From Eledone cirrhosa (taxonomy: Eukaryota), in contig OZ024755.1 in the NCBI GenBank assembly GCA_964016885.1, positions 37,262,001 to 37,326,000 on the forward strand: DNA of 64,000 nt, given 5' to 3'. The stretch's first letter is position 1. Each line of letters starts with the position of its first letter. The position numbers were made by a program, and so were the translations under genes. Positions 2,119-63,689 of the stretch are shown piece by piece. The notes under the pieces were generated by a model that searched no databases, was not told the origin of the DNA, and saw only the letters and a program-made list of their open reading frames with translations.

Positions 2119-2435
2119 TGTTTCCGTAGGAAAGGTAAAGGAAAAGAGAGTGCTCTATGTAGACTACAGAGCTTTTTAGTTATGTAATAAACAACATAAG
2201 ATAATTATTTCATTTACCAAAGGTTTCACGAAGACAAACGAGCTTGACACAGAAATCGTTCATCAGAACGTGTCGACGCGATCTGTTGGGACCGCGCGGG
2301 AAGACGGAACGACGACAGCGACGAACGCTGAGCGCGTTTGTAACCCGACTCCCGGGTGCGACCTGCGATCGCGTTAGATGCCGTCAGCGCCGTTCGCAGT
2401 TCGCTGCGTGCCGGTTGCGCGGTGTCGCGCATCAA
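2117..2435 (-). mobile_element. Hammerhead-bearing Penelope-like/retrozyme end with GC-rich upstream part and (TA)n tail
   Basis: Contains the hammerhead at 2211-2270; its 3' tail (AAGTGTTTCCGTAGGAAAGG...) recurs at about 25312-25393; it ends in (TA)n. Confidence 0.6.
2211..2270 (-). ncRNA. Type-I hammerhead ribozyme motif
   Basis: Minus strand: CGTT-CTGATGA-ACGA[24 nt]TCGT-GAAA-CC TTT GG-TA-AATG. All core nucleotides are present and all three stems pair. Confidence 0.8.
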
Positions 2436-4160: not shown

Positions 4161-7100
4161 CTACAGGCTGAGGTAGAGAGAAGGCCCATTCACACGGGCC
4201 ATTCTCGCAACTTTCACCCACCTTTCATAAAACTGGCTGGAGTGGAGCACCTCTCTCTCCATCCTGATCCTTCTTCCGAAATGGTATCGGAAGAAAAGGA
4301 CCAGTTGTTGGCCGGAGAGAAAGGTGTCCGACCTCAGCCCTTTCAGACACGGCCACCATATAGCCTCTTTTACCATAGCTATTACACAGAGGAAGACCGC
4401 CTCTCCTTCATTTTTGAAGGGGGGAGGCGGCTTGATCGTTACAATGGACTCGGTGGTCAACCTAATTGGTCCCACCCGTGACAGCAGTTGTTCAACATAG
4501 CCCCACAGATCGGCAACGCCCGGGCAGTGCACCAATGCGTGCGCGACGGTTTCCTCGTCGCGCACGCATCTGGGACAGATCTTTTTCGAGGGGTCCCTAC
4601 CCGGGCGCCCGTGTCTGTAGAGCTTATCCCGAACGGGCAGAGCCCCTCGGTAGCACTGCCAGGCCAAGGACTTCTGGAAGTTGTCCATAGGTCCCGGGCC
4701 GAAAGTCCTACCGAATAGACTGGCCAGTTCGTCCTCCTCCATGCCTAGGGCTTCTCCGAGGGCGTCGTCGCACCCGCTAACCACCAGCCCTCTATAGAAT
4801 GACGAGGTGGAGTCTCCGTCGATAGCCGGGTCCGCCTGCCAGAGAGCCGTGAGCGCCTGGGCACACTCGGTGTGCCAGTCGCCCAGTTTTCTCGGTCTTT
4901 GCTTCACCCAGGACTGCAGCTCGGTGAGCGAGACGAGCCTCGGGAAGGCTCGCCTCACAAACGGGGCCCACACCGGTTGACCGGTGAGGAATACGTGGAG
5001 GTGCCTTAGCCTCAATGCGTGTTTACGCATTTTTAGCCACGGCATCCCCAGCCCTCCTTTCAAAGGGTGTTGACAGCAGATGGATCTCCTCACTAGAGGA
5101 GACCTCTTCTTCCAAAGGAAATAAAAGAGGGCGCGCTCCATTTTGGCGAGGATCTCACCCGGGCAAGGCACGACAGTCAAGCGGTAATAGATGACGGACG
5201 CTATGTAAGCATTCGCCACCTCCGCCCGACCTTTTAGGGATAGTTTGCACTCGGTCCACTTCTGGGTCAGTGCAAACACCCTATTCGTCACCTCACCCCA
5301 GTTTTTCTCCACCTGGAGGTCCGGTCCGAACCAGACCCCAAGCAACTTCACCGGGCCCTCCGTCCACCGTCCGACGATACCGTCGCACGACATCGCTTTG
5401 CCCCTCCACTCGCCGAGTTGCAAAGCGACTGACTTGTCCCGGTTCAGCTTAGCCCCTGTCAACCTTTCGTACTCCTCTAGTAAGGTGCCGATTGCCTCGA
5501 TTTCCGAGGCGGTCGACACCATTACTGTTACGTCATCGGCGTAGGCCGACACCGCTTTGCGCAATCCCGGTTCCAAAGGGATGCCCTGCAACAACTCCAA
5601 CTTCCGCAGTAATGGCTCGAGAGTCAATACATACAGAAGGGAGGAGAGAGGGCACCCCTGTCGGATGGAGCGGGTGATTTCGAACGGCTCCGAAAGGTAG
5701 CCGTTCACCTTGATTCTAGAGCAGATGCGGCTGCTGTGCATGGCAGTGATCCAGCCCCTGAAAACGGGTCCGAACCCAGCCGCCGCTAGCACCGCATCCA
5801 GGTAACCATGGTCCACCCTATCGAACGCTTTAGACTGATCTAAATTTATCAGGGCCCCACCAAAGCCGGGTTCGTTCCCAACCCTCTCTATGATGTATCG
5901 CATGAGGTGGAGGTTGTCGTGGATGGACCTGGACGGGATAGCGCATGTCTGCGCATCTCCCACCAGGCCCCCCACGACAAGCGCCAACCTCTTCGCTAAC
6001 ACCTTCGCCAAAATCTTTAACTCTGCATTTAGCAGAGTTATGGGCCTAAAATTACTAATGTCATCCCCCTTGTTCTCGTCCTTCCTCACTAGCGAGACTA
6101 CGCCCTTGGTCACAGAACAGGGAATTCTCCCGTTCTGTTGCCAGTTGCAGTAGACCGCCTCGAGGAGATCGGGGAACAAGTCCGGCATATTAATATATAG
6201 TTCGTAGGGCAGACCATCGAGTCCTGGAGATTTGCGTTTGCCGCATAGGCTCAGCACGTCCCCTATTTCAGCAGCTGAGATCGGCCCGTCGCAGGACCTC
6301 GCCTCCCTGTCCGAAAGACGCGGCAGGCCGTCGAGGTATGGACCGAAATCCACATCTCCAACCGGCTCCCCGCCCCTCCCGAACAATTGGGCAAAGTGCC
6401 TTTGAAAGGCCTCGCACATTTGCTTAGGTTCAAGGATCAGCCGTCCATCCTGGTCTCGCAAAGACCGGATAGTGCATTTAATCCCACTTTTCGCTTCTGT
6501 CACGCGGGCCCAGCTAACAGCTTTGGTCCCCTCGTTTCCCAGAGCACGTATTTTGCTTCGGACAACGCAGCCTTCGTGTTTCGCGTCGAAGAACTGGTTC
6601 AAGACCGTTCTCGACGCTTGCACTCTGGCCACGTTGCCGCTTCTCATTGCCTCTTCAACATTAACTACCAACTCCCTTTCCTTCCTATTTCTATCTGAGG
6701 CTAACTCCTTACTAACTCCTATTGAAACTACTCTAATCTCTCTTTTTAGAGAGCCCCACCACCTGTTGTTGACGATGGCGCCCGTCAACTGCTCCTTAAC
6801 TAAGGTTCTAATCCGGTCCCTGTAAGCTCTACTTGCCGGTAAGGACAAGTTGAGCTTCCAGTAACCGGGCCCCTGCCTATGCGTTCTATCAAGGTGGACT
6901 ACGCAGGTCACTAACTTGTGGTCTGAATAGCCCACCATGAGCATTTCTGGACAACTTAAAAAGTCCCTATCCTTAATTCTAACTAAGAACCTATCTAGGT
7001 ACGATATAGATTGACCACTGTTATTTGACCAGGTCCAGGTTGGTACAGTCGGAAAATCTAGTCGGTATCTATCGGCCAGGTCGAATCGGCCGATTAACCC

Positions 7101-7597
7101 CTTAAGGCTGTTACACCCCCCTCTATCGGGACATGCCCCTACATAGTCCCAACGTGCATCTAGGATACCATTCCAGTCCCCCACTAAAAGCAAGGAGCGG
7201 GACGTCCCTAGAAAAGTCTCCAGACGATGGAAGAAGTCCGACCGCATTGCCCCAAAAGGGGCGTATACGGCGACAAGCCTAAAAGCTTCGCCTTCGCCAT
7301 TGCCAAGGTCCAGAACCACGAGTCGACCCTCCGGGTCCAAGTGTACCGTCTGTGTAGCGAGACCCAGATGTTTTTGCAGCAGAACGTCAACCCCACCCCC
7401 ACCTCCAGGCTGACAGAGAGATGCGTGCATCTCAAAGTCATCAAAGGTGGGGTTAGCTGTCGCATGCTGCTGATCCGGGCCTCGCAAATAACCATCACAT
7501 TTACACATTGTGACCTGAGGTCACTTAGAAGTTTAGCTTGCTTCCAAGGTGAGCCCAGGCCACGCGCATTTAGACAACCTACTGTTAAGACAGCCAT
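4161..7597 (-). CDS. Tx1-like ORF2: AP endonuclease, reverse transcriptase and C-terminal zinc knuckle; one 1-nt frameshift near 7450
   Basis: True start at 7597 (MAVLTVGCLNARGL, APE motif I), joining the 1115-aa frame at TFDDFEM. Motifs: GDWN, YLDRFL, SDH, PGLDG, FRPITLLN, DQSKAFDRV, RQGCPLS, YADD, CPRC...ETVAHALVHC. Confidence 0.93.
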
Positions 7598-7620
7598 GTT
7601 GGTGGCAAAGAAAGAGGCAC

Positions 7621-9375
7621 TTACCTCTCTGCGTCCCGGGGTTCGGGTCGCTCAGTTTCCATGGGGCTGGTGGAGGGGTTGATGGGTGGGGTGGTGGTTT
7701 GTGGTGGTGTGGGGGTATTAGTGTGTGGAAGGGTTGGGATCTTTGGAGGTGTGTGGGTGTTTGAGGAGGGGAGGGGAAAACCTTTCAGGAGGACGCGGTT
7801 GAGTGGCCTGGTGCAGGGTGGGCCCACGTCCTCAGGGTACATGTCTTTTAAAGTTTTGAAAATGTCAAGTGGGATTTTCACCATTTTCAGGTTAGGGAGC
7901 CCCATTGCCGTTACGAAATTCGGCCCTTCGGTTTGTATCGAAGGGTTGGTTTCTATTTTTAAAGTTAGGTTTTCATTGTTTTTGTTTATGTATGTGTAGA
8001 GTTTTTGTGTTGTTGTGTTTGTTTTTGCTTGTTGTTGTTGAGTGAGTTTGCGTTTTATTGTCTGTGTTGTGTTGTCAGGTGGGGTTATTTTTGTTGTTGT
8101 GGTGTGTGTACGTTTTTTTCTTTTCACTTTTTGGAAGGGAGCCCCCTCGTCTTCCGACGATATGAGCTCCTCTTCCGTATTGGAGGGGAGGGGTATATCT
8201 CCGGGTTGTGTATGAACTGTTTTTGTATTTGTGTTCTGTGGGGTGGGGCTGGGTGGGACCGTGTTTTGGGTTGTTTTCTTGAGCTGTTGTTGATGTTGTT
8301 GTTGTGGTGGTGGTGGTGGTGGTGTTGTTGGTTTTTGTTGTTCTGGTGGAGATGGTAGTGTATTTTGTTGTTTTTGTGATGGTGGTGCTGGTTGTTTTTG
8401 TTGTTGTTGTGGTGTTTGTAGCAGTGTTTTTTTAGTTGTTAGTAGAGGGCAGGCCGTCCTCAGGTGACCTCTGCCAGCGCAGTGGTAACATGAGGGTCTC
8501 CTGCCTTCCACTGTGATATTTATGTAGGTTCGCCCATCCAGTAGCACTCGGTCGGGTATTCCGGAGATTCTCTCAGGTGTCATCTGTAAGAGAACCTCCA
8601 GACTTTTCCCCCCGAACAGTCCACTGGTGGACTCCCCTGCTGAAATTAGTATGTCCTTATCTAGGTCGGTAAATCCTGTTAGGACGGACCAGATGTTAAT
8701 TTCTGGCGTAGGGCTCCACATTCTTATCCTTTGTGTTCTTCTTCCTTTATATGTGGGGAAGAAGGTGTAATGTAGTGACACTATAGGTGCCACCGAATAT
8801 TTCTGAGCCAGCATTTCGTCCTTCATTCGGACCATAATGCTGGCATACAGCTTTCCTCTTTGAATAAAGAGTATGTCATTTTTAATTTCTTTCAGAACCA
8901 GCTCGATTTGACTTTCGGTCAATTGCGCTGGCTTTCTCGTTTCGTTGGTTATGGTTCTGTAGCTTACGGTATTCTTGTAAATCTGTTCACGCACTTCTTC
9001 TGGGGAGTTGATCGTAAAAGAACCATCCTCCCCAAAAGATACGTATTTTCTAGCCTCTAGCAAATTTTCCTTGGCGTTCGTGATGTCAATGGCTTTGTAT
9101 TCCGTGGCTCTCCTAAGTGTTTGGGCAAAAGAAATTTTGTCTTTGTTTGTTGTTGTAATGTTGTTGGTTTCCTTATTTGTGGTGCTATTTTTTTCTTGAA
9201 AATTAATTTTTTCATTTGAATTGAAATTCTTTTTTTCATTGGAGAGGAGGGGTTGTTCAACAGTTTGAACTGTTGTTCCCTCTTTCCCGCTTGTTTTTTT
9301 GGTCGGCGTGGCGTTCGCTTCCAATATGGCGATATCGTTTTCGACGATATCGTTATCAACGATATCGATAAACAT
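7621..9375 (-). CDS. Tx1-like ORF1 nucleic-acid-binding protein (584 aa)
   Basis: Open ORF with a CCHC knuckle (CYHCAGRGHLRTAC) followed by a P/Q/T-rich tail, directly upstream of ORF2. Confidence 0.9.
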   Translation of the reverse strand: MFIDIVDNDIVENDIAILEANATPTKKTSGKEGTTVQTVEQPLLSNEKKNFNSNEKINFQEKNSTTNKETNNITTTNKDKISFAQTLRRATEYKAIDITNAKENLLEARKYVSFGEDGSFTINSPEEVREQIYKNTVSYRTITNETRKPAQLTESQIELVLKEIKNDILFIQRGKLYASIMVRMKDEMLAQKYSVAPIVSLHYTFFPTYKGRRTQRIRMWSPTPEINIWSVLTGFTDLDKDILISAGESTSGLFGGKSLEVLLQMTPERISGIPDRVLLDGRTYINITVEGRRPSCYHCAGRGHLRTACPLLTTKKTLLQTPQQQQKQPAPPSQKQQNTLPSPPEQQKPTTPPPPPPQQQHQQQLKKTTQNTVPPSPTPQNTNTKTVHTQPGDIPLPSNTEEELISSEDEGAPFQKVKRKKRTHTTTTKITPPDNTTQTIKRKLTQQQQAKTNTTTQKLYTYINKNNENLTLKIETNPSIQTEGPNFVTAMGLPNLKMVKIPLDIFKTLKDMYPEDVGPPCTRPLNRVLLKGFPLPSSNTHTPPKIPTLPHTNTPTPPQTTTPPINPSTSPMETERPEPRDAER

Positions 9376-9549
9376 TTCTGAAATATTTATTTTTCACCCC
9401 AAAAGGGGTGAAAATATATTTACCCGACGTCTAGAGTCCCAGACTAGGGGTTACAGTTAATTATACAAAAGAATTCAAAAAAATCCACTCACAAAATTAG
9501 CAGGTAAAAATCCAAATCACAGAGCGATATGACACACGTCTACTATCCT

Positions 9550-11639: not shown

Positions 11640-12375
11640 AGTTCTCTAAGTTTCACAGTGACACATTGTGTCGTAAGGCATTGAATTACAGGTACACATT
11701 GAATTACAGGTACACATTGAATTACAGGTACAACTCATTTTTACAGCTGAGAAAACCGGAGAAACGGTTAAATAAAGTGTTGTTTTAAATTATGTCAGGT
11801 CACTCTCGAGTGCTACTGGTAGCATGGAACCCAGTATAACCTGTCGCATGGTCGGGTCGTCGGCGACTAAACGGGAAACCCCACCAAGTTTACTTGGTGA
11901 GGAGGGTGATTTGGGACACCCTGCAGGACAAAAAACAAAACCTGACAAAGGGCGGAAGAACTCATAAGAGTGAACGGCCATCTAAATAAAAAAAGAATCC
12001 TGCTAAATCAATGGGTGGCAGTGGTTCCAGCTGCACACATCGAAAGACTGGTGTAGTGGTTCTGAGAACAATATGGCTTTGCAGATGATCAATACAAATT
12101 GACAATGGAAAGGCGCTCCCGCTTGAGTTAGAAGAGAACTATTGACTCTTAGGAGAAGCAGCAACCCTGATTGTATTCAGCAACCGAAACAAATATGAAG
12201 TACACCAAATCCAATGCTCCTAGAGGCGGCCCTGGTTCTTCTTATTTGCGAGTGTAAACTCGGCCAGATTAGATTAGATTAGATTAGATTAGATTGAAGG
12301 ATACAACGAGCCACCAGGAATCGAACTCATGACCTTATGTTCATAAGCTGGTCACCCTAACCACTAAGCCTTGCG
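11640..12375 (-). mobile_element. tRNA-derived SINE (family 2), split by the 11790-12296 insertion
   Basis: Head (reverse complement of GGCTTAGTGGTTAG...GAGTTCGATTCC) at 12298-12372 and body at 11640-11788; homologous to 18737-18880. Confidence 0.7.
11790..12296 (+). mobile_element. Non-coding retroposon with (GATTA)n tail, longest copy
   Basis: Its 3' 300 bp recur at 18881-19162 and 31359-31642; all three end in GCCA(GATTA)n. Confidence 0.8.
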
Positions 12376-18691: not shown

Positions 18692-18736
18692 CACGCGCAC
18701 ACACACACATATATATTTATAGACATTTATGTGAAG

Positions 18737-18880
18737 GCGCATGGCTTAGTGGTTAGAACATTGGGCTTGTAATCGAAAGGTTGTGAGTTCGAATATCGGA
18801 CTGGTGGTGTGTTGTGTCCTTGAGCAAAACATTTTATTTCACATTGCTCCAGTTTACTCAGCTGTAGAAATAAGTTGCGA
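18737..18880 (+). mobile_element. tRNA-derived SINE (family 2, CORE-like body)
   Basis: TGGCTTAGTGGTTAG A box, GAGTTCGAAT B box, GTGTCCTTGAGCAAAACA body; another copy at about 53420-53550. Confidence 0.8.
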
Positions 18881-19162
18881 TCCTGCCAAATCAATGGGTG
18901 GCAGTAGTTCCAGCTGCACACATCAAAAGACTGGTGTAGTGGTTCTGAGAACAATGTGGCTTTGCAGATGATCAATGCAAATTGACAATGGAAAGGTGCT
19001 CCCGCTTGAGTTAGAAGAGAACTATTGACCTTCAGGAGAAGCAGTGACCCCTGATTGTATTCAGCAACCGAATCCAATATGAAGTACACCAAATCCAATG
19101 CTACTAGGGGCGGCCCTGGTTCTTCTTATTTGCGAGTGTAAACTCCGCCAGATTAGATTAGA
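18881..19162 (+). mobile_element. (GATTA)n-tailed retroposon copy
   Basis: Homologous to 11998-12296 and 31359-31642. Confidence 0.85.
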
Positions 19163-19240
19163 TATGTATGTGTGTGTGTGTGTGTGTATTCATACACAAT
19201 GTTTTATACACACACACACACACACACATTTTGTCGCATC

Positions 19241-19333
19241 ACCAGTCTGAGGAGCAAATAGATACTGGAGTCGGGTCCATAACCCCCTATTGGTCACCTT
19301 GAGTCAATCCTTTGCGAAACGCGCGTAAAAGGT
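19241..19333 (+). ncRNA. Hammerhead motif with extended stem II (stem I partly decayed)
   Basis: CTGAGGA-GCAAA[insert]TTTGC-GAAA-CGCGCG-TA, with the palindromic stem III typical of Penelope-type hammerheads. Confidence 0.65.
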
Positions 19334-19375
19334 CGAAACGCGATAAATATTTTTCATATGTAAATGAAACTTCCT

Positions 19376-19418
<43 letters not shown>

Positions 19419-19421
<3 letters not shown>

Positions 19422-19483
19422 ATGAAGGACTAGCGTCCGAAACGGTCCGAAACGTTAAAACCCTCTTCCTGTTATATTTAGCG

Positions 19484-19485
<2 letters not shown>
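19419..19485 (+). mobile_element. Degenerate copy of hammerhead family A between (TA)n tracts
   Basis: TGATGAAGGACTAGCGTCCGAAAC(GGTCCGAAAC)GTTA; matches 42834-42869 with a 10-nt duplication. Confidence 0.75.
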
Positions 19486-19502
<17 letters not shown>

Positions 19503-19517
<15 letters not shown>

Positions 19518-19685
19518 TTCTACAGGACTAGAACTGTTTCATTCTTGAGGAAACATCAGGAAGATTCCTGATGATTTCTCAAGAATGAAACAGTAGAATC
19601 TCATCTACATTAAAACTGTTATACTCTGCTATGTATTGAGTACCTTACTGTGGTTACCTCCGATTCAACCCGCCGGAATAGCTTA

Positions 19686-19688
<3 letters not shown>
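19503..19688. mobile_element. Penelope-like pLTR with inverted 5' duplication (hammerhead family B, head-to-head pair)
   Basis: Plus copy GATTC-CTGATGA-TTTCTCAAGAAT-GAAA-CAG[deleted]TA-GAATC from 19563; minus copy 19506-19562 keeps stem III; the tail is homologous to 28245-28325; TA tracts on both flanks. Confidence 0.8.
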
Positions 19689-19726
<38 letters not shown>

Positions 19727-19878
19727 CCAGGGGTGTAACTAGGAGTTACTGCAGGTTCACCCGGGAGATCACTCGATATTTAGGGTCACTTCTGTGATGA
19801 TGTGTAGAGCTATACAGAGTGTAATATATTGAAAGGATAACAAGGACGATTGATTACTCCTTCATTGCATTTATTGAT

Positions 19879-19965
19879 AGGTGACGCGCGTTTCGCCACT
19901 GATCAGCTCAAGGTTCGATCTGTATCAATCCTACCCGACTCAATAATCGGCGGCTCAACGGACCC
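19879..19965 (-). ncRNA. Hammerhead-like motif with variant core CCGTTGA and extended stem II
   Basis: Minus strand: GGGT-CCGTTGA-GCCGC[insert]GTGGC-GAAA-CGCGCG-TC-ACCT, then AATAAA; lies downstream of the GIY-YIG relic on the same strand. Confidence 0.6.
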
Positions 19966-21878
19966 TCTTAAAATGCTATAAGAAAATGAAATACATGCTA
20001 TGTGGTAAAGTCATAGTTTCAAGAGTTTGACAAAATGAGTTGTTTTGATTGGTGGGAAGGATGAAGGGGATGTACTGGCCTGTAGTGTATATGGGGGGTG
20101 GATGTGATGGTGAGATGTTGGTGATGGTCGGTGGATGAGATGGGCTGTGGTGTGGTGGTGGTGGGTTGGCCTTGGCCTGTAGAGTATGTGGGGGTGGATG
20201 TGATGATATGATGGTGGTAATGGTCGCTTACTGGGATGGGCTGTGGTATGAGGTTAGTGGGTTGTCAGTAGACGGGTTGGCGTGTGTGGGAGTGTGGTTG
20301 TGGTGTTGTTGTTTATGGTAGTGGCGTTTGTGGTGGTGTGGTGGATGTGTTGATGGTGTCGAGTCCTTACGGAGATACATAGCTAGACGCTCTTCGTCTG
20401 ACAAATACTTTGTATATATGTATACACACACACACATGTATATATGCGCACATATATTGATGTATAAACACACACAAAACACATACGCACACCCTCGCCC
20501 ACACATATCGACACACGCGCATACACAGACATATGTATATATACATACATGTATGTGCATGCGCGCATGCGGACACAAATATGGAGAGTGGGGGAGTATC
20601 GGTGGGGGTGGCGAAGGACAAAGATGGAGGGAAGGTGAGAGGCAATGGAGAAGGTGTTATACATATATACATACACATACATACACTCATACACACAGAC
20701 GGATATGGGCACAAGGTGAGAGGCAATGGAGGTGTTATACATATATACATACATACACTCATACACACATACGGATATGGGCACATACACGCGCACACAC
20801 GTATACACACACATATATATATACACACGTATACACACACATATATATATACACACACAGACACACACACACATACACATACATGCACATGTACGCGTGC
20901 ACATACACATACACACAGATTCACCTATATAGATATATATGTAGACATACATATATATATATATAAATATGCGTACACGCACGCATATTTATACGCACGT
21001 ATATGTAAAAAATACTTACACACAGACACACACACTTGCGTTGGTTCGGGAGTGGTGGTATGCGTTGGCGGTGTTGATGAAGTATGGAGTTGTGTTGTGT
21101 CTTGTGGTGGTGGTGGTGGAGTTGTGAGCGACAAAAATATACAGAATCGAATAGTGCGATGGGTTACAGGTTAAAAGGTGACAAAGGGAAACTCGGGAGA
21201 GAAGAGTTTCTGGACGTATGGCGATGTGTGTTGTGGTCATGGTGGTGGTGGTGGTGGTGCTGGGGTGATATGTTCGACAAGATGATTACATGATCAGAAG
21301 TTACGGTGTGTTACAGGGTAAGGCAGACGGAGGTGGGGGGGGGGGATATAATACAGTCGATCTGGGAGTGAGGGATGATATGTGTTGATGATGTTAATGA
21401 TGTTAATGATTGTTGAAGTATGTGGATGTATCTAGTGGTGGCGGTTGTTGTGTGTGCGCGCGACAGTACATTTACAGGGTCGAATTTAGCGTGGGGTTGT
21501 AGGTTAGGGTAGATAGAGGGAACATGGGGGGGGGGAATAAGGTTGCGGGTGTGTATGGTAGACATATGACGATATGTGGTGTGGTGGTGGTGGCAATGGT
21601 GTGATATGATCGACATTGTATTTACAAGATCCCGTGTTACTATGGATTGTAAGGTAAAACCTATCATAGGAGACCGATCGAACACAATGTTGCAAGGATG
21701 AGGGGTGTATGGTGATGTGATTTTTGGTGGGGGTGATGTATGCGGCATGATATACAAAATACGGGCTTACAGATGGTTACATGCAGTACAATAAAATAAG
21801 ATAAAGTAAAATAAAATTAATAATATTAATAAATTCGTTGAGATGGGCGATGGTGATACGGGGCAGAGGTGGTTATTA

Positions 21879-22313
21879 TTATGGTGGGTCATGGTTAGTG
21901 CATGGCCTTCCCCCGAATGTTTGTGCGGAAAAGGTGTTCAGCCTGGTGTGTCTGCAATTGACAATTATGTCCGACCTATAGTTTATGGAGGATTTTAATT
22001 TAATTATTTCCTCCGCCTCAGCCAGGCATAATCTGCAGTGGTTTCTGTCACTGGGGATTTGCGCCACGCGTCTTTTCACTGACCACGAAATCTGGGGCTC
22101 AATATTCCTGTCCTTGAGGTCCCAGATCAAGTCGGCCAGTCTGGTTTGGGGTGGTTTCAGTCTATGTTTGAATGAGCTTCTGTGGTTATACCAGCGCTCC
22201 TTAAACGTAATGGATGTCGCACCTATCTATGAGTACTCCTTATTGCCGGCTGTGACATCACACCGGTAAACAATATTCTTAACGAGGCACTCCCCGTTTA
22301 GTGGGCATTCGGC
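21879..22313 (-). pseudogene. Penelope-like element GIY-YIG endonuclease (C-terminal domain), 5'-truncated, one nonsense codon
   Basis: Manual translation AECPLNGECLVKNIVYRCDVTAGNKEYS*IGATSITFKERWYNHRSSF...LIWDLK...CRLCLAE...INYRSDIIVNCRH; TAG at 22229-22227 replaces the Y of YIG. Confidence 0.9.
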
Positions 22314-25774: not shown

Positions 25775-26465
25775 TAACAGACTAAAGTTTAAGCAAAGAA
25801 TCACTGCTTTCACACTTAACCGGATCTTCTGAAACTAAAAAAATCAATCTGTGAACGCAGAAAATGAATCGCTGCTTTCACTCTTAACGGGATATTCTAC
25901 CTAAAAGCAGTATGAAGTACATACACTGAGACTAATTGATGTAATCTTTGACCTTGTTTGTTTATATTTTGTTTTTGTGTATGCAAAAATATCTGTACAC
26001 GAATATCTATATTAAAATAACATATTAAGGTTTAAGCAAAGAATCGCTGCTTTCAACCTTAACGGGATCTTCTTAAATTAAAAAAATCAATCTGGAAAAC
26101 AGGAAGACGATACTTTGGTTCGTGAAGACGTTCCCTGGCATAAGAATTTATACACACACACACACTGATCGCGTCATAATCACCTAATGCAGACAGTCAG
26201 GCATACAGAGAGATATTATGAAGGCGCGACGTCATATCTATGTATCTATCTAAAAAGAGAAAGACTAAGAGAAAGAGAAAGAGATTGCTAAATCGCCTAA
26301 TGCGGTCCCTAGGGATTTGAAAATTTGAAATTATTTTGCTCAGAACACTCAATAGGACCATAAGTATTACATGTGTAAAGTTTGAAAAAAAAAAACGGGT
26401 GGGTACTTCTCGAGTTTTAGGGAACCAGACACACAGACAGACATCCTCTGTTTTATATATATAGA
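25591..26465 (-). mobile_element. Non-autonomous Helitron
   Basis: Minus strand starts A|TCTATATATATAAAA and ends with a CCCGAGCAGCGCCGGG hairpin plus CTAG|T; no TSD; carries an internal duplication. Confidence 0.8.
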
Positions 26466-26519
26466 TATATATCATGTTTAACTAGAGTTATTACAAGCCT
26501 TGCCTTAAAAAAATATTAA

Positions 26520-26966
26520 ACTAGACCTGAAAAATGCGTAAGCTCAAAAGAGCCACAGAATGTTATAATAAACCTTCAAAAGTGTGGGACTAGAGTTGTT
26601 GCTCAAAAATATTGTAATTATTATCTATCGTACACTCTGTGGCATCCTTTTATAAAAAAGAGACTCATAACGAACTCAAGACGACACGATAATTATTTAA
26701 GTGAATTTATAATATAGAATTCGGTTTAAATGGATTTCGTATTAATCATTGCTAAACATCTAATATGAGATATTGAACATTAGCTTAAATAATTATCGTG
26801 TCGTCTTGAGTTCGTTATGAGTCTCTTTTTTATAAAAGGATGCCACAGAGTGTACGATAGATAATGATTACAATATTTTTGAGCAACAACTCTAGTCCCA
26901 CACTTTTGAAGGTTTATTATAACATTCTGTGGCTCTTTTGAGCTTGAGCAATTTTTCAGGTCTAGT
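26520..26966. mobile_element. Fold-back/MITE with ~182-bp inverted arms
   Basis: 26520-26701 is the reverse complement of 26784-26966 with few mismatches; spacer about 82 bp. Confidence 0.85.
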
Positions 26967-27381
26967 ATATATATATATATTATCCTGAGTTGGTTTTCTC
27001 GTTGCTTTGGTCCTTGCAGCTGCTTACCGGTTGCAATCTTCAATTTGCCAAGCTGTCTATACGTAATGTTATTACTCTAAGGTAAAATACCTTACTGAGT
27101 GCTTAGCTGCACATTCCGATTGCATTCGTTAGCTTAGCTGCAGCCAGAGCTTCGATTATGCTGAACTTCCATTTGTATATATATACATACGGGATAACAA
27201 ATTATTGTTATAGGTAGTCCACTTAGATGTAGTCCAGTTAGGGTACTCCGAGTAGTGGATAGTATTAACGCTTGGCAACAAGACGTTTCCATAGTGATGC
27301 TGCGAGTACACGGTGATTTCTATGTAGTTTATACTTGGAGTAATAATATGGTTTGCTATATAATAAGGGCTTTATTCACAT

Positions 27382-27489
27382 TGCTGACAATTGTTTCTCT
27401 GAACTGGTAGGTCTAGAGATCGCTACCCGCCTGTTTTTGCGTCAATCGATCACCAATACTTTGTTATAACCAGTCAATTCATCAGAGCA
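27382..27489 (-). ncRNA. Type-I hammerhead with long stem-II insert
   Basis: Minus strand: TGCT-CTGATGA-ATTGACTGG[insert]CCAGTTCAGA-GAAA-CAATTG-TC-AGCA. Confidence 0.75.
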
Positions 27490-27894: not shown

Positions 27895-28001
27895 TGCTCT
27901 GATGAATTGACTGGTTATAACAAAGTATTGGTGATCGATTGACGTAAAAACAGGCGGGTAGCGATCTCTAGACCTACCAGTTCAGAGAAACAATGTCAGC
28001 A
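27895..28001 (+). ncRNA. Type-I hammerhead with long stem-II insert (second arm; 1-nt deletion in stem III)
   Basis: TGCT-CTGATGA...GAAA-CAATG-TC-AGCA. Confidence 0.68.
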
Positions 28002-28208
28002 ATGTGATTAAAGCCCTTATTGTATAGCAAACCATGTCACTCTTCTTTCTTGATTTATATATATATATTAATAAAAGATTGGAGGCCATATTCAGTTGAT
28101 TCAGATTTATTTAAAACCCCGTTATATATATTTCGCTGAGGACTATCAGACGGCAAAACCTGTAAATACATTGAAAGTTCCTCCTCCCCAAAAATGTGTG
28201 CATATATG

Positions 28209-28243
<35 letters not shown>

Positions 28244-28325
28244 TTATCCCGGGTTCAATCGGGGTTAACCACAGTAAGTAAGGAACTCAATACAAAGCAG
28301 AGTATAAATATTTAATATAGAAATA

Positions 28326-28374
28326 GCTTCTACAGGACTAGAACTGTTTCATTCTGGAGAAATCATCAGAAAGC
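28326..28374 (-). ncRNA. Type-I hammerhead ribozyme (family B, intact)
   Basis: Minus strand: GCTTT-CTGATGA-TTTCTCCAGAAT-GAAA-CAG TTCTAGTC CTG-TA-GAAGC; stem I covaries with the 19563 copy (GATTC/GAATC). Confidence 0.85.
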
Positions 28375-28378
28375 CTCT

Positions 28379-28464
<86 letters not shown>

Positions 28465-31028: not shown

Positions 31029-31358
31029 TCATATAATTACGAATGTTCATTGGCTTCACTATTGTAAATAGAAACGATAATGCACAACACTTTAAAAACT
31101 GAAAACTTTGAGTAGCTCCGCATAAAACCTTTTTCAAGCAGATTATCGCTGAAGATATCAATAGTCATCTGTAAAGGGTTGAACGAAGAATTTCAAGAGT
31201 GGATAAGCTTTACGTGGAGGAGGGGCTCAGAGGAAAATCGTCCACCCTACACCGAAAACGTAGTACAACCTGGTTTCTTCAGAGGTTGATAGAATCATTC
31301 CGAAGAAAGTTCTGTATTTAGTGCTAATACGATAGTGAAATGATATTTTAAAATAAAA

Positions 31359-31642
31359 TCCTGCCAAATCAATGGGTGGCAGTAGTTCCAGCTGCACACA
31401 TCAAAAGACTGGTGTAGTGGTTCTGAGAACAATGCGGCTTTGCAGATGATCAATGTAAATTGACAATGGAAAGGTACTCCCGCTTGAGTTAGAAGATAAC
31501 TATTGACCTTCAGGAGAAGCAGTGACCCCTGGTTGTATTCAGCAACCGAAACAAATATGAAGTACACCAAATCCAATGCTATTAGGGGCGGCCCTGGTTC
31601 TTCTTATTTGCGAGTGTAAACTCGGCCAGATTAGATTAGATT
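31359..31642 (+). mobile_element. (GATTA)n-tailed retroposon copy
   Basis: Homologous to 18881-19162. Confidence 0.85.
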
Positions 31643-34890: not shown

Positions 34891-36306
34891 AAATGATTAA
34901 ATGATAGGAAACTGGTTTTGATGTTATATGATGATGTATGTCCATAATTCTCCACGGGAAAAAAGATGGTGTCGGTGGGTTCCAAATTCTCGTCCCATCA
35001 TTATTGGGGAGCTGGCTCCCGAGGCGAAGCACATCCGCCTTCAACACAAAGATGAAGTGATTGGACAATTGGAAGGTTGTCACCAAGTTGACTAACGAGT
35101 CACATGAAGCACTTTGAAATCAGTGATCAGCCAAGGCTAACCAGTTCTGGCTACACGTTTTCTTTTGTTGTTTTTACACACTATTGAATGACCGGTGATA
35201 CTCCTGAATGTTTCTCACTTCTACTGGATTTTGTTTTTCATCCTGCTACATGTCCATAAATCAAAGTTGGTGTAGCTGCCGGTTTAGTCGCCGACGGCTC
35301 ACCTCTTCTATTCGGTTTAATTTTAAGACATGAAAATTGAGAAAGTGTAATTGAGCTGACAAAGAAAGCTGTGCAGCAAATATTTGTTTGAGAACAAAAG
35401 ATAATGGTTAAAATATACAAAGGATGTTTGAGTTTCAAGCAATGATTTCATATATTTCAAATTATATTTTTTCAAACATCAAAATCTAACCTTTCTGACA
35501 TGTTTTAAAATTTTCTGTAAAAAGAAAATAAATACATCTTTTATATTTATTTTTTAAAGTCTGTGGAGAACTCTTTTATTTGCTTATTTGTTATATATTT
35601 CATTTAGAATTTGTTAGTGAAAATAAAAAAAATAAAATAAAACAGCACAATTACCGACTCGAACAAGTCGATAGAATGGAATCCCGATAGTGAAGAATCA
35701 CGTTTTTATGACAAATAACATTTATTTTTTATTTTTTAAAAATCCTCATCAATAGCGACATATTGATTATCGCGTTCTCAGAATACGGCATTGAATAAAA
35801 ACAAACTACATTTAACGGTGTTTTTGTGTATAGAAAGAGGGCTAGCAAATTTGTTTCTGTTTTCGAAGCATTGAAATTTCGAAGTTCAAAATAGAATATT
35901 TCTAAGACGAAAGTAGAATAGCGATGATTGCACGAAAGATAAATAGAGCAAGAATTTAGAATAAGGCAATATTTTGTTTTGGTATGTTTTCTGGATTTTG
36001 TTTTTTAGTGTAAGCGATACTATTTTGTTTTGTAATTTATGGGAAAAAAGTTCAGCAATATAATATGATCCCCAACGGTGGCTACATGCTCGGGATTCAA
36101 TATGAACGTCAGGATTCTTTTCAATATCGAATGTTAACAGGAAATCAATGCGCGTTGTGCTTGTTTTCACAACAATTGTCCTCAACGGACCTTTAAAATG
36201 CTAAAGAGTTAGTTTTTGCTGGCATTAATTCACAGCCTACGTCTGAAACAATTTTGCGAAAACTAAATTTATTTCGTGTGGAATATGATCAATAAAGCTT
36301 TTTTAT

Positions 36307-41867: not shown

Positions 41868-42157
41868 CAGTCATGGGCAACTTGCGGCCCGCGAAGCTTT
41901 CTGAATAACTCACCTAAGTCACCTGAGTGAAATCTTTCTGATTTTTTTACCCCAACTTTTCAGTCGTAATTTATCTTTCTATCATTTTAACGATCGAGGA
42001 AAACAACGTGTACGAATTCTGAAGAAAAAATCGAAACAACCTGAGTTACTGCCCCTTTTTTTAATGTGGGCACGAATGTAAATTAGCGCTTGCGGCCCGC
42101 CTGATGATGAGCCATATCTCATGCGGCCCGCTTCTCGGAAAAGGTTGCCAATGCCTG
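41868..42157. mobile_element. hAT (Charlie-like) MITE with 8-bp TSD
   Basis: TIRs CAGTCATGGGCAAC / GTTGCCAATGCCTG, subterminal GCGGCCCGC repeats, TSD ATCTAGAA on both sides. Confidence 0.92.
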
Positions 42158-42833
42158 ATCTAGAACATATTTAAGAAGAGTAATAATTTTCAATCATATT
42201 ATCCTGTATAATCTGCTCTAGACTTTCAAATATTTTCACAGGATCTCTGTAAAATATCCTTTGTAATCTACGAAGAACGGACACAGGAATGACAGGGTAA
42301 CGATTTGTGGTATCTCAGCATCTAATAAAATATTATGTATATATTTGAGTGTGTGTGGGTGGGGTGGGGGGATGTATGCCCCCCCCTCTCTCTCTCTCTG
42401 TTCACGCACGAGATAATGTATGCATAGAAAAGGGGGAATGCAATGATAGAGGCAGGAAACTGAATGTTAGATGCAGCATCGTCACAATACCATTCTTTGG
42501 CCAACACATTTAGGCAGATATAGATCGATTTAATCAATGCATGTATATCATATAACAGCTACGTATGGTATGTAGTGTTTGTAGGGAGTTATTGATAAGC
42601 TTTCCTTTACACAAATCATAACGAAAACAAGTTAAATGTAAATGAGAATAGTGTCTAACGTTATTTATAACTAAGTAGACTAAACCAAGAACTTATATTT
42701 ATATAGAGTGTTATTATATATATATATTTATATATGATGCAAGAGATGTCAACATGAATGGACCTGTTATCTAAAGACATTTTTTCCAATTCCATCCCGC
42801 CCGTCCCCTCAATCTATCTTATTTCTCATACTT

Positions 42834-42869
42834 TCTTCTGATGAAGGACTAGCGTCCGAAACGTTAAGA
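42834..42869 (+). ncRNA. Minimal type-I hammerhead ribozyme (family A)
   Basis: TCTT-CTGATGA-A-GGAC TAGC GTCC-GAAA-CG-TT-AAGA, inside a ~165-bp repeat (about 42795-42958) that ends in (TA)n. Confidence 0.85.
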
Positions 42870-42953
42870 CCCTCTTGCTGCTATATCAAGTGTTAACCTA
42901 ATATATCCTTTCCATATACTGTACCGATTGTGTTGTTATTTCTGTTTACCTTT

Positions 42954-45412: not shown

Positions 45413-47321
45413 TTCTTTATTAGCCACAAGGGCGCAACAAGAAAGGGGACAATACAAAGGCATGCCGGGGATTTTACATACAGTCGTGTAAAAAATATAA
45501 AAACAAACAATTTCAACAATCGAAATCCCCAATAGGGGGGAGGCGCCACAAATGGGTTGTTTAATACCCCGTCGATAGAACAACCCTCAACTCGAGGAGC
45601 GTGTTGTGCAAGTGCTCCTTTCTTCCTTTTGCTCTCTTCCTCAACCTACAGGCTTATAAACAGAGAAGGCCCAATCACTCGGGCCATTTTCGCTTCATTC
45701 ACCCACCTTTCAGTAAATTTACTGGGGTGCAGTGCCTCTCTCTCCACCCTGATTCTCCTTCTAAAGTGATACTTAAAGAAGGGAATCAATTGTTGTCCGG
45801 AGAGAAAGGCATCTGTCCTCAGTCCTCTCAACCTCGTCCACCATATAACTTCTTTCACCATAGCCACCGTACAGAGGAAAACCGCCTCTCTTTCGTTTTT
45901 GAAAGAGTCTGGCGGTTTGATCCTTACTATGGACTCGGCAGTCAACTGTATTTGTCCCATACGCGACAGCAGTTGTTCTGCATAGTTCCACAGGTCGCTT
46001 ACGCCCGGGCAGTGTACAATTGCGTGCAGAACTGTTTCAATGTCCTGCGCACATCTTGGACACGTCCTCTTGGAAGGATCCCTGCCAGGGCGTCCGTGCC
46101 TGTAGATCTTGTCACGAACCGGTAGAGATCCTCGGTAGCACTGCCAGGCCAGAGACCTCTGGAAGTTGTCCAAAGGTCCCGGGCGGAAAGTCCTACCAAA
46201 CATACTGGTGAGCTCATCGTCTTCGACGCCCAGAGTCTCTCCGAGCACGTCGTCGCCCTTGTAACGTACAATCCCTCTATAGAATGTCGAAGTGGAGTCT
46301 CCACTGATTGCTGCGCCCGCTTGCCAGAGGACTGTGAGCGCCTGAGCGCATTCAATGTGCCAGGCGCCCATCGTTTTCGGTCTTTTCTTCACCCAGGACT
46401 GCAGCTCCGTTAGCGAGACGAGCTGTGGGAAAGCCTGTCTCACAAACGGTGCCCACACCGGTTGGGGGTCGGTGAGGAATACCTGGAGATGCCGCAGCCT
46501 CAGCGCATGTTTGCGCATCATCAGCCACGGCATTCCCAGCCCTCCGTTGGAAGGGTGCTGACAGCAGACGGATCTCCTCACCAGCGGAGCCTGCTTCTTC
46601 CACAGAAACTGGAAGAGCATGCGTTCCATCTTGGCGAGGTGTTCACGGGGACAAGGCACGACAGTCAAGCGGTAGTAGATGACGGACGCTATGAAAGTGT
46701 TCGCCACCTCCGCTCGACCTTTCAAGGACAGTTTGCACTCTGCCCACTTCTGAGTGAGTGCAAACACCTTGGCCGTGACCTCGTTCCAGTTTTTCTCCAC
46801 CTGGAGGTCTGGACCGAACCAGACCCCGAGCAATTTCACCGGTCCGTCCGTCCAGCGTCCAACGACGCTGTCGGATGTCATCGGTTTGCCTCTCCACGTA
46901 CCGAGTTGCAAACCGACAGACTTGTCTGGGTTTAGTTTTGCTCCCGTCAGCGTTTCGTATTCTTTCAGTATGTTGCCGATCACCCCGATTTCCGAGGTGC
47001 TCGACACCATTACTGTCACGTCGTCGGCATAAGCCGACGCCGCTTTGCGCAGTCCCGGTTCTAGGGGGATGCCCTGCAACAGCTCCAATTTCCGCAGTAG
47101 TGGCTCTAGAGTCAATACATACAGAATGGAGGAGAGAGGGCATCCCTGTCGAATGGAACGCGTGATTGCGAACGGCTCCGATAGGTAGCCGTTCACCTTG
47201 ACCCTCGAGCAGATGCTGGTGTGCATCGCCTCGATCCATCCTCTGAACACGGGACCGAAACCGGCCGCCTTGAGAACCGCTTCCAAGTATCGATGGTCGA
47301 CCCTATCGAATGCCTTAGACT

Positions 47322-47324
<3 letters not shown>
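45413..47324 (-). mobile_element. Tx1-like family B, 5'-truncated (RT C-half to 3'UTR), inside (GATA)n
   Basis: Open 546-aa frame 45646-47286 highly similar to family A ORF2 (RQGCPLS, YADD, CPRC); long GATA arrays on both flanks; GAT microhomology at the 5' junction. Confidence 0.95.
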
Positions 47325-47405
<81 letters not shown>

Positions 47406-48097
47406 GATAAATAGATAGATAGATAGATAGATTGTACTATTCTCACATCGTATATTACATCATTCTTGTAGTAGCGTGTGTATTTTTCTTGTGCTGAGAG
47501 ACATAACCACTGTTCCGTTAGTTCAAGCATCAATTAGATAAGATATCAAAGCCGAAAGTTTTGTAAATATTGTAACGAAATTTTTGTTGACCTTTCTTGT
47601 TACGGTGGAGCTAGTGTTGTTACATTCGGTTGGTCTTTGACGGGAGAGTTTCATGTTTTCTTTCTGTGGATTAATCACGTTTCAACATTGTAATTCCCCA
47701 GATCTTATGACAGCATTTAGATACCAATTTGCTAATTTATGTGAAATAGTTACGCAGTGCAGAGTTAACATTACTTAGATCCATTATGTAATGCATGTTA
47801 TATTCGATCATTGATCTGTCAATATTGACAGGGTCAACACACTAGTCAACACACTAGTCTTTCAATTTCCATACATTTTGCTTTATGTCCTATCTTTCCC
47901 CTCTTTTCTTCATTCCTGAAAGACGGCTTTGAATATACCGTATAATATGCTTTCCTTTTGAACATGTATTTCGCACATACCGTATAATTTGTTTCCTTTG
48001 CTTCCGATATAATTGCTTTACTTAAGTATTTGCCATTAATAGGATATATCTCGTCAGTCCATCGCCATTCTGATCGGCGTTTCAGAACTTGTATAAA

Positions 48098-61850: not shown

Positions 61851-62463
61851 TTTTGCTCGTAACAGAGAATGTTGTGACAATTTGCAGTATTAGGGTAAAA
61901 AATTAATATTTAGTGTAACGTAATTCAAACATAGTGCTGTTTTTTTAGATTTCAAGAACTCATAACACAATACTGCTGTAAAATTCTCCTTTTTATGTAT
62001 AAAACTTCCTTATCTTCTATGCAACTAGGAACCGATCTAGAACCTCTTACTAAAAGACAAACCTCAGAACCAAATTTCTACCCGAGACTCAGACCTGATA
62101 TTCCTTAATCTCGATCCCATCTTTCCTTTTTCAGGTTACCCTCCAAAAGCTGAGAATGCTTCCTGCACATATGTAGGCCGCACTGCTCTCAATACTGGCT
62201 TTGATCAGTTCACTGAAATAACCCCTTCTATATTTATATGTTTCCCCTTCCACTCTTCGTCCATTCATATTGTTTGACTGGAGGGGCGAGAGAGAGAGTG
62301 AAGTTCGGCGCTTCCGAGTTCGGACACATGGCACCTGTCAAGAGTGTATTTTCATGATTAATATATATATATGTATGTAAAAGGTAAACAGAAATAACAA
62401 CACAATCGGTAGAGTATATGAAAGGTATATATTAGGTTCACGCTTGATATAGCAGGAAGAGGG

Positions 62464-62499
62464 TCTTAACGTTTCGGACGCTAGTCCTTCATCAGAAGA
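62464..62499 (-). ncRNA. Minimal type-I hammerhead ribozyme (family A)
   Basis: Exact reverse complement of 42834-42869, inside a repeat (about 62376-62531) flanked by TA tracts. Confidence 0.85.
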
Positions 62500-63127: not shown

Positions 63128-63398
63128 CAGTCATGGGCAACCTGCAGCCCGCAAAGCTCTCTGGATGACTCACCTAAGTCACCTGAGTGAAATCTTTCTG
63201 ATTTTTTTACCCCAACTTTTCAGTTGTAATTTACTTTTCTATCATTTTTACGATCGAGGAAAACAACGTGTAGGAATTCTGAAGAAACAAATCAAAACAA
63301 CTTGAGTTACCGCCCTTTTTTTTAATGTGGGCACGAATGTAAATTAGCGCTTGCGGCCCGCCTGATGATAAGCCATATCTCATGCGGCCCGCTTCTCG
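63128..63398. mobile_element. hAT MITE copy lacking the right TIR
   Basis: Colinear with 41868-42138; flanks TTCTAAAC / ATCTAAAC. Confidence 0.85.
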
Positions 63399-63689
63399 AT
63401 CTAAACAAATAGGTTGAGTTGATACGTTTCTCTGAAATGTCTACCCTAAGAACAAGGAATTGTATATCACTTGAACACGTAATGTCACAGTTGGTTCCTT
63501 TCTTCTTATGGAATGGTATGGACACGTGACTCATTATAAAGTCGTAGGGACGCCATATTCACATATGGCGTTTCTAGGGCATTTTAAAACCTGGCGGAGC
63601 CCATCCCTCTCCAGGCCCGAATACAGTAGATTTCTTCCAGAGAAAGATAGAAAGTGAGAGAAATGAAGTAAGAAAGAGATATAGAGGAA

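Follow-up and report, generated by a model that had tools for sequence, protein, structure and literature searches.

Why should two hammerhead-like domains on opposite strands, with different stem II sequences and different apical hairpins, carry the same internal RNA architecture? The question comes from a sequence-only reading of the window, i.e. the whole 64,000-nt stretch of DNA analysed here, in which a conserved RNA module was proposed to be grafted into stem II of two divergent elements. The two loci are made up of the following features.

19229..19380 (+): locus 1, a fragment of about 150 nt delimited from the sequence, from a (CA)n tract to a (TA)n tract
19230..19246 (+): locus 1, 5' strand of stem I, with a distal helix predicted to form with 19340-19347 and a proximal helix
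19247..19253 (+): locus 1, hammerhead 5' core CTGAGGA, matching the canonical CUGANGA
19254..19315 (+): locus 1, extended stem II domain of 62 nt, basal helix (stem IIa) GCAAA/TTTGC
19261..19309 (+): locus 1, module, with GAT at 19261-63, GAGTCGGGT at 19268-76, a variable hairpin at 19277-95, ACCTTGAG at 19296-303 and ATC at 19307-09
19316..19327 (+): locus 1, 3' core GAAA and a stem III that is palindromic (ACGCGCGT), with the putative cleavage site at 19327, following GUA
19727..19990 (-): locus 2, a U-rich lead-in, a hammerhead-like domain and a 156-nt tail to (TA)n
19955..19961 (-): locus 2, variant 5' core CCGTTGA (U4C, A6U), proximal stem I GGGT/ACCT with 4 consecutive pairs
19895..19954 (-): locus 2, extended stem II domain of 60 nt, basal helix (stem IIa) GCCGC/GTGGC
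19901..19948 (-): locus 2, module, with GAT at 19948-46, GAGTCGGGT at 19941-33, a variable hairpin, ACCTTGAG at 19914-07 and ATC at 19903-01
19883..19894 (-): locus 2, 3' core with a stem III that is again palindromic, and the putative cleavage site at 19883, following GUC

Judging from the sequences, we favour, with a probability of about 0.5, the reading that the two loci are 3' ends of subfamilies of one Penelope-like lineage with an extended hammerhead, and that an AGUC/UGAG internal loop in this stem would serve as a protein handle. Both loci end in a (TA)n tract, which lies 53 nt beyond the putative cleavage site in locus 1 and 156 nt beyond it in locus 2. Locus 1 is likely the 5'-truncated 3' end of a Penelope-like element (PLE). 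The 3' core reads GAAAC GCGC GU-A in locus 1 and ends in GU-C in locus 2, so that GAAA, A15.1-U16.1 and an H17 other than G are present in both. Stem II is closed by G10.1-C11.1 in both loci (5/5 pairs each), and ACGCGCGT is self-complementary in both, with a predicted duplex energy of -13.3 kcal/mol. A 9-nt duplicate of the 3' core is found just past stem I of locus 1, at 19328-19347 (+), where it contributes some of the pairing in distal stem I. No reading frame common to locus 1 and locus 2 runs across the module.

That both loci are hammerheads holds in part. The 5' core of locus 1 is intact; that of locus 2 has two substitutions, and stem I of locus 1 has two mismatches after its first pair (from the core outward T-A, G.A, A.A, C-G, C-G, A-T). 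Rfam gave nothing at gathering score anywhere in the window. At E up to 10, the interval 19000-20200 has a Hammerhead_1 match at 19873-19912 (-), which is part of locus 2, with 16.6 bits (gathering 34); the only other ribozyme-type row there is a Plasmodium RNase P elsewhere in the interval. The short-stem hammerheads of the window are likewise below the Rfam gathering threshold. An alternative core CTGATCA within locus 2, taken from the partial Rfam match, was rejected as it is missing from locus 1. Non-LTR retrozymes are described as tandemly repeated units that all carry a type I hammerhead in the available part of the source (10.64898/2026.07.22.740005); this identity was also rejected, the loci being two solitary copies on opposite strands with no tandem repeats.

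Next, the two stem II domains were compared. The common architecture seen by the sequence-only reading is confirmed as GAT-N4-GAGTCGGGT-(19 or 18 nt)-ACCTTGAG-N3-ATC-N-(stem IIa 3' strand)-GAAACGCGCGT; it spans 19261-19326 (+) and 19948-19884 (-), and the 3' spacing is the same in both. All 23 module bases are identical (23/23) between domains that agree at only 35 of 63 columns, and the two-arm pattern had 0 matches in 200 shuffles of the window. Segment by segment, identity is 3/3 for GAT, 1/4 for N4, 9/9 for GAGTCGGGT, 3/18 for the apical part, 8/8 for ACCTTGAG, 0/3 for N3 and 3/3 for ATC. In the flanks it is 2/5 and 3/5 for the two strands of stem IIa, 11/12 for the 3' core and 2/6 for each side of stem I. 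The difference in stem II sequences and apical hairpins is thus equally confirmed. Stem IIa keeps 5/5 pairs in both loci through two double-sided changes and one single-sided change.

Outward from GGGT/ACCT, the two arms oppose C.U, U.G, G.A and A.G and then a G-Y pair, i.e. a predicted symmetric AGUC/UGAG internal loop. The N3 bases differ at 3/3 positions yet are pairable in both loci, by inspection, if a 2-nt bulge is allowed in the 5' arm; a sheared tandem-GA register is less favoured for that reason. There is zero covariation among the 23 invariant bases, and their pairing is a prediction. For locus 2 the common fold is predicted, with pair probabilities of 0.97-0.99 in stem IIa and 0.59-0.94 in GGGT/ACCT, whereas in silico locus 1 disfavours it (0.00-0.01 and 0.09-0.17, respectively), and forcing stem IIa costs 2.6 kcal/mol. 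Folding z-scores are unremarkable for the 106-nt regions (+1.93 for locus 1 and -0.92 for locus 2) and reach -0.74 and -2.24, respectively, for the stem II domains. An alternative 5-bp helix can be drawn in both loci (19311-19329 (+) and 19881-19899 (-)), in which the 3' strand of stem IIa pairs with five bases over the cleavage site. It has two double-sided changes, with a post hoc chance estimate of 0.015 with wobble pairs and 0.0006 under strict pairing; folding assigns this helix a probability of 0.2-0.5 in locus 1 and of 0.0 in locus 2.

A loop of this kind could also be a tertiary-contact module of the ribozyme, docking on the distal stem I loop or on a dimer partner and speeding cleavage as contacts between loop 2 and stem I do in full-length hammerheads. 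However, the sequences of the stem I partners are unconserved, the module is placed some 13 bp away from the core, past the usual contact position, and the two core substitutions make the activity of locus 2 doubtful. On the other side, a distal stem I extension with an internal loop is predicted in both loci, and according to the available part of PMC3088659, contacts between stem II and stem I activate hammerheads, and variant cores are thought to be compensated by contacts outside the core. We regard a tertiary contact as an unlikely explanation of the loop.

The module is better kept than its surroundings, as had been claimed. Identity within the stem II domains is blocky, the longest runs being 9 and 8 columns; by permutation, p is 0.0028 when the two runs are scored and 0.011 when the longest two are summed, and 21 of 10,308 neutral simulations matched for identity attain the observed blockiness, all these statistics being drawn from n = 2 copies and from blocks picked because they match. 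Uniform divergence of the two loci, which the sequence-only reading had set against its own proposal, is unlikely, by a modest margin (p 0.002-0.011). The two copies agree at 36 sites, among them four CpGs of the 3' core, which makes heavy decay unlikely; locus 2 differs at 2/6 core sites. The joint probability of 2/6 core changes and 0/36 elsewhere is at most 0.0014 for decay rates of 2-15%, a figure that overstates the case since the sites were chosen post hoc. The comparison suggests that the CCGTTGA core of locus 2 is a family trait.

Under a neutral explanation, the loci would be old copies of one family or template-switch mosaics, with identical blocks that are chance survivors or recently exchanged patches, and the module would be ordinary PLE debris. 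Common descent is likely anyway, each copy has apparent defects, and the p values come from two copies and matching blocks. However, on both arms the identical stretches are interspersed with positions that have changed completely and still pair, the apical hairpins have nothing in common, the four CpGs are intact in both copies, and few simulations reach the observed pattern. Neutrality is in our view improbable, and it is quite probable that the module was under selection while the element was active. The shared motif is real, and the accessory loop was probably selected, within an extended stem II of PLE-type hammerheads.

Were the module grafted into two elements independently? As an independent mobile RNA domain it would have entered two unrelated elements separately, and the 5' flanks of the two loci are indeed unlike (569/5000 shuffles), as are their stem I sequences. 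A further piece of the window, 36150-36205 (-), resembles the lead-in and variant core of locus 2 and has no module. It is the best non-self match to this part of locus 2, scoring 43 against 34 for the next unrelated tile (0/1000 shuffles). The 22 bases that match include the same CCGTTGA; next come a short hairpin and then AACGCGC. Either the piece is an older relative, or the core of locus 2 was borrowed at a truncation junction. Against a graft, the module has the same insertion register in both loci and was not detected in the other hammerhead families of the window. Core position, the base of stem IIa, the 13-nt 3' core with its palindrome, the 3' spacing and, weakly, the tail point to common descent of loci 1 and 2. 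The tails agree at 28 of 52 columns, a marginal likeness whose score is reached by 220 of 5000 shuffles. Grafting, as first proposed, is not supported, and a separate graft is quite improbable.

Several further PLE-type hammerheads occur in the window, which is microsatellite-rich animal DNA with many short repeats; short-stem ones lie between loci 1 and 2 (19419 and 19565). By its repeat features the DNA looks octopod, a placement for which relatives of its proteins gave no confirmation. A long stem II is not unique to loci 1 and 2; what is special to them is the invariant loop. Two near-identical type I hammerheads in divergent orientation are found at 27386-27485 (-) and 27899-27997 (+); their cores are canonical and their stem II measures about 80 nt. 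This second long-stem family has an inner GATCG/CGATC helix and a 5x5 loop. A hammerhead-like motif with a 32-nt stem II (2215-2266) is found at 2215-2430 (-); before it comes a GC-rich stretch of 160 nt in which several hairpins are predicted, and after it a short tail, then (TA)n. A minimal hammerhead family occurs at 19419-19486 (+), 42838-42895 (+) and 62440-62495 (-), the 19419 copy having a 10-nt duplication across the 3' core. Another hammerhead-like family is located at 19510-19690 (+) and 28200-28380 (-); its 19510 copy has a 62-nt inverted duplication at the 5' end, as in PLE 5' inversions. The tail of locus 2 shows no significant likeness to the tails of three other hammerhead families of the window.

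Other repeats were recorded as well. A near-full LINE is present at 4164-9393 (-), with open frames of 590 and 1119 codons (RT, zf-RVT and a weak endonuclease match), and a second, truncated RT copy at 45649-47436 (-). A young dispersed repeat of 284 nt occurs at 18880-19163, 11997-12279 and 31358-31641, the copies being 94-97% identical; the copy at 18880-19163 directly follows a tRNA-like SINE fragment at 18730-18880. A long inverted duplication, with its centre near 26715 and short flanking TA tracts, covers 26450-26970. Two repeat copies, at 42040-42200 and 63300-63400, have a direct repeat of GCGGCCCGC around a CTGATGA motif.

Searches for further copies of the module were then made. A two-sequence HMM and a covariance model revealed no third copy in the window, the next best match having E 6.3. 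GAGTCGGGT also occurs at 2343-2351, in a different hairpin, which was taken as chance. Collecting homologues by pattern, as had been proposed, gave only chance matches in viral, metagenome and prokaryote collections. In viral contigs, the module patterns matched 52, 4 and 6 loci: 0/52 had the 3' core, and the 4 and the 6 were without the rest of the module. None of 55 loci in metagenome contigs had the full architecture, and 0/32 loci in prokaryote genomes had the 5' arm. The covariance model was applied to 98 of 150 outside loci (L001-L052 were scored by HMM only); among the 98, the best match (L070, 29 bits) lies inside an open bacterial-type reading frame. Protein-led scans of the viral contigs found no PLE locus. 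For an animal repeat, chance-only matches in these collections are expected and uninformative on its range.

That the motif is not a described one is borne out by the sources searched: no Rfam family matches it, and none of the Naiad, Chlamys and Hydra consensi of the available PMC8557442 supplement was seen to combine the two module arms; GAGTCGGGT has 0 occurrences there (line wraps may mask matches). No account of the module was found in the papers and supplements searched. The accessory loop is apparently undescribed.

The assignment to Penelope-like elements draws on a coding remnant upstream of locus 2, on the same strand.

21882..22313 (-): GIY-YIG endonuclease fragment from six-frame reading, 5'-truncated, 144 codons with one internal stop, beginning right after (TA)n
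20050..21870 (-): two C/A-rich, G-poor tracts (21870-21040 and 20360-20050), G 6-9%
21040-20415 (-): microsatellite-rich block splitting the C/A-rich tracts

Pfam gave no match for the fragment itself (22313-21882 (-)) and, among 14 of its relatives, one weak GIY-YIG match below the cut-off. In a language-model atlas the fragment lies near GIY-YIG clusters (0.94 and 0.91). A word-based search with the fragment returned no relatives, whereas an exhaustive search found 3,623 at E<=0.001. Among the best 150 of these, CxxCxxE is present in 149, CxH near the end in 119 and a CxCx5C linker in 83. The six of these 150 with at least 600 aa have upstream DK[TS] and YRDD in 6/6 and RW[KRQ] in 4/6; long relatives of this kind code for an RT-endonuclease and have DK[TS], YRDD, a CxCx5-10C linker and CxxC / CxH. 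The window fragment carries CRLCLAE and CRH, while the CxCx5C linker, RWK and DKT fall outside its truncated extent and are seen in the relatives (83/150, 4/6 and 6/6, respectively). According to the available part of PMC8557442, such RT-endonuclease motifs and (TA)n insertion characterize the Hydra clade, which is recorded in Octopus bimaculoides. By these motifs, the fragment resembles this clade, and the lineage of the element is probably Hydra.

The region 20050..21870 (-), which separates the endonuclease fragment from locus 2, is likely 3' UTR. From the endonuclease stop to the core of locus 2 there are 1,921 nt, on the same strand and across the microsatellite block; two published Hydra consensi have roughly 150-180 nt at that distance, estimated by eye (PMC8557442, available part), about ten times less than here. 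We lean towards a link between the fragment and locus 2. Possible decayed hammerhead-like remnants at 20360-20410 (-) and 21250-21300 (-), within this presumed 3' UTR, could belong to other fragments. For locus 1, six-frame reading revealed no adjoining ORF remnant. A PLE origin of both loci is very probable.

The sequence-only reading had also named a recoding signal and a kink-turn-like module. A eukaryotic SECIS has a 5' RUGAN / 3' NGAN core, a helix of 11-12 bp and an apical AA, and a kink-turn or box C/D motif has a 3-nt bulge, tandem G.A and A.G pairs and a continuous C-helix. The loci do have GA dinucleotides on both strands and a 3'-UTR position, and SECIS elements are known in Naiad PLEs (PMC8557442, available part). 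However, neither locus has RUGA on the 5' strand (in locus 1 this strand is without any UGA), neither domain has an RTGA, and Rfam lists no SECIS row at E<=10. The cysteines of the endonuclease fragment are ordinary codons and its single stop is TAG, which further argues against UGA recoding. As for binding of the L7Ae family, no box C was found within one mismatch and no 3-nt bulge beside a continuous C-helix; in the tandem-GA register, locus 1 has 4 versus 4 unpaired bases and locus 2 no bulge. Both identities are very improbable. A sarcin-ricin identity of the module was rejected too, its consensus features being absent. Least probable is another ribozyme class such as the hairpin ribozyme, which is built from a loop A with a G11-Y pair plus a loop B: the 4x4 AGUC/UGAG loop with N-GUC could pass for loop A and the following GAAAC for the start of loop B, but measured against the consensus the closing pair is G-Y instead of Y-G11, the two loci have neither a helix 4 nor a 3' strand of loop B in common, and Rfam has no hairpin or twister row at E<=10.

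The subfamily reading, with a protein handle, can be put together as follows. One ancestral type I hammerhead with a stem II of 60-62 nt would have been inherited by two PLE subfamilies. Its 23 identical bases would form the predicted AGUC/UGAG loop between two short helices, and the loop may be a binding and folding handle for the RT-endonuclease protein of the element itself. Among the possible functions of the loop, binding by this protein is put forward tentatively, in agreement with the RT-binding site suggested by the sequence-only reading. The transcript would fold into a long rod, and the palindromic stem III would permit cleavage only as a dimer or with help of the protein; this palindrome fits the dimer-dependent cleavage described in the available part of PMC4209133. 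If cleavage is weak or dispensable, the 5' core and proximal stem I would be free to drift, and a protein-contacted loop and the palindrome would not.

A reconstituted PLE bears on this in two ways. According to the available part of PMC11167929, its hammerhead required the protein for cutting, and mutations that affect catalysis left insertion no lower; with such protein-dependent, dispensable cleavage in the Anolis element, a core may drift while the binding surface stays. The binding region proposed there is the first 172 nt of the ORF, which is not shown to be stem II, and this counts against the handle. A bolder version, rather unlikely, would have the hammerhead turned into a non-catalytic or conditionally catalytic scaffold with the AGUC/UGAG loop as RT-endonuclease recognition site. 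The alternative pairing over the cleavage site, as a second covarying helix, would then be a switch that prevents cutting of the RNA before protein binding. Ends of this type would escape current hammerhead descriptors, leaving a class of extended PLE hammerheads uncounted.

How do the two loci compare with known systems? The comparisons that follow use the available parts of the cited sources. The Hydra-clade hammerheads (PMC8557442, File S2) have, like these loci, a type I layout near the 3' end, a palindromic stem III and (TA)n ends, and locus 2 has an endonuclease fragment of Hydra type upstream of it. However, the 26 Hydra rows listed there have a stem II of 3-7 bp, a loop of 3-10 nt and canonical cores, in contrast to the 60-62 nt, the invariant loop and the variant core of locus 2 found here, and the hammerhead of Hydra-1_Obim is unlike these loci in sequence. 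A 10-mer of the locus 2 tail, AGCTCTACAC at 19800-19815 (-), also occurs in the published tail of Hydra-2_Amil (PMC8557442), which could be chance.

The minimal hammerheads in the pseudo-LTRs of metazoan PLEs, described by Cervera and de la Pena (2014; PMC4209133), are alike in their U-rich lead-in, short stem I, G10.1-C11.1, palindromic 15.2-16.2 with loop 3, solitary truncated copies and opposite-strand pairs 100-700 bp apart. Their extra nucleotide after A9 is missing from both loci. The Schistosoma families of that study are unlike these loci, with a helix II of 7-8 bp and no conserved accessory loop reported in the part available. Long hammerheads are also known from PLE-X1 elements of spike mosses (PMC8557442, File S2, marked as deviating), with a loop 2 of 35 and 29 nt; these plant elements are endonuclease-less and unrelated in sequence, and the available part reports no common internal motif. 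Naiads likewise have a structured GA-containing hairpin, the SECIS, in the PLE 3' UTR, but they have an N-terminal endonuclease and no canonical hammerheads (PMC8557442), and the SECIS features are absent from the loci studied here.

Published hammerhead descriptor searches admitted no more than 7-17 nt from one half core to the other (PMC8557442), which suggests that long-stem variants are missed; three kinds occur in this one window. In the annotation of Octopus vulgaris, 190 PLE families make up 6.83% of the genome, and the available main text is silent on ribozymes (PMC13282606). In PLEs, cleavage by the hammerhead is weak in vitro (PMC4209133) and was dispensable for insertion in one reconstituted system (PMC11167929). 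That system, Poseidon of Anolis (PAc; Frangieh et al. 2024), is a precedent for a protein-assisted hammerhead whose catalysis is unneeded for insertion in vitro. It belongs to another clade, its hammerhead overlaps the ORF start, and no extended stem II module is described in the available part of the report. Set beside it, a family that preserves an accessory loop more strictly than its catalytic core is a natural case for asking whether protein recognition, rather than cutting, keeps the fold in place.
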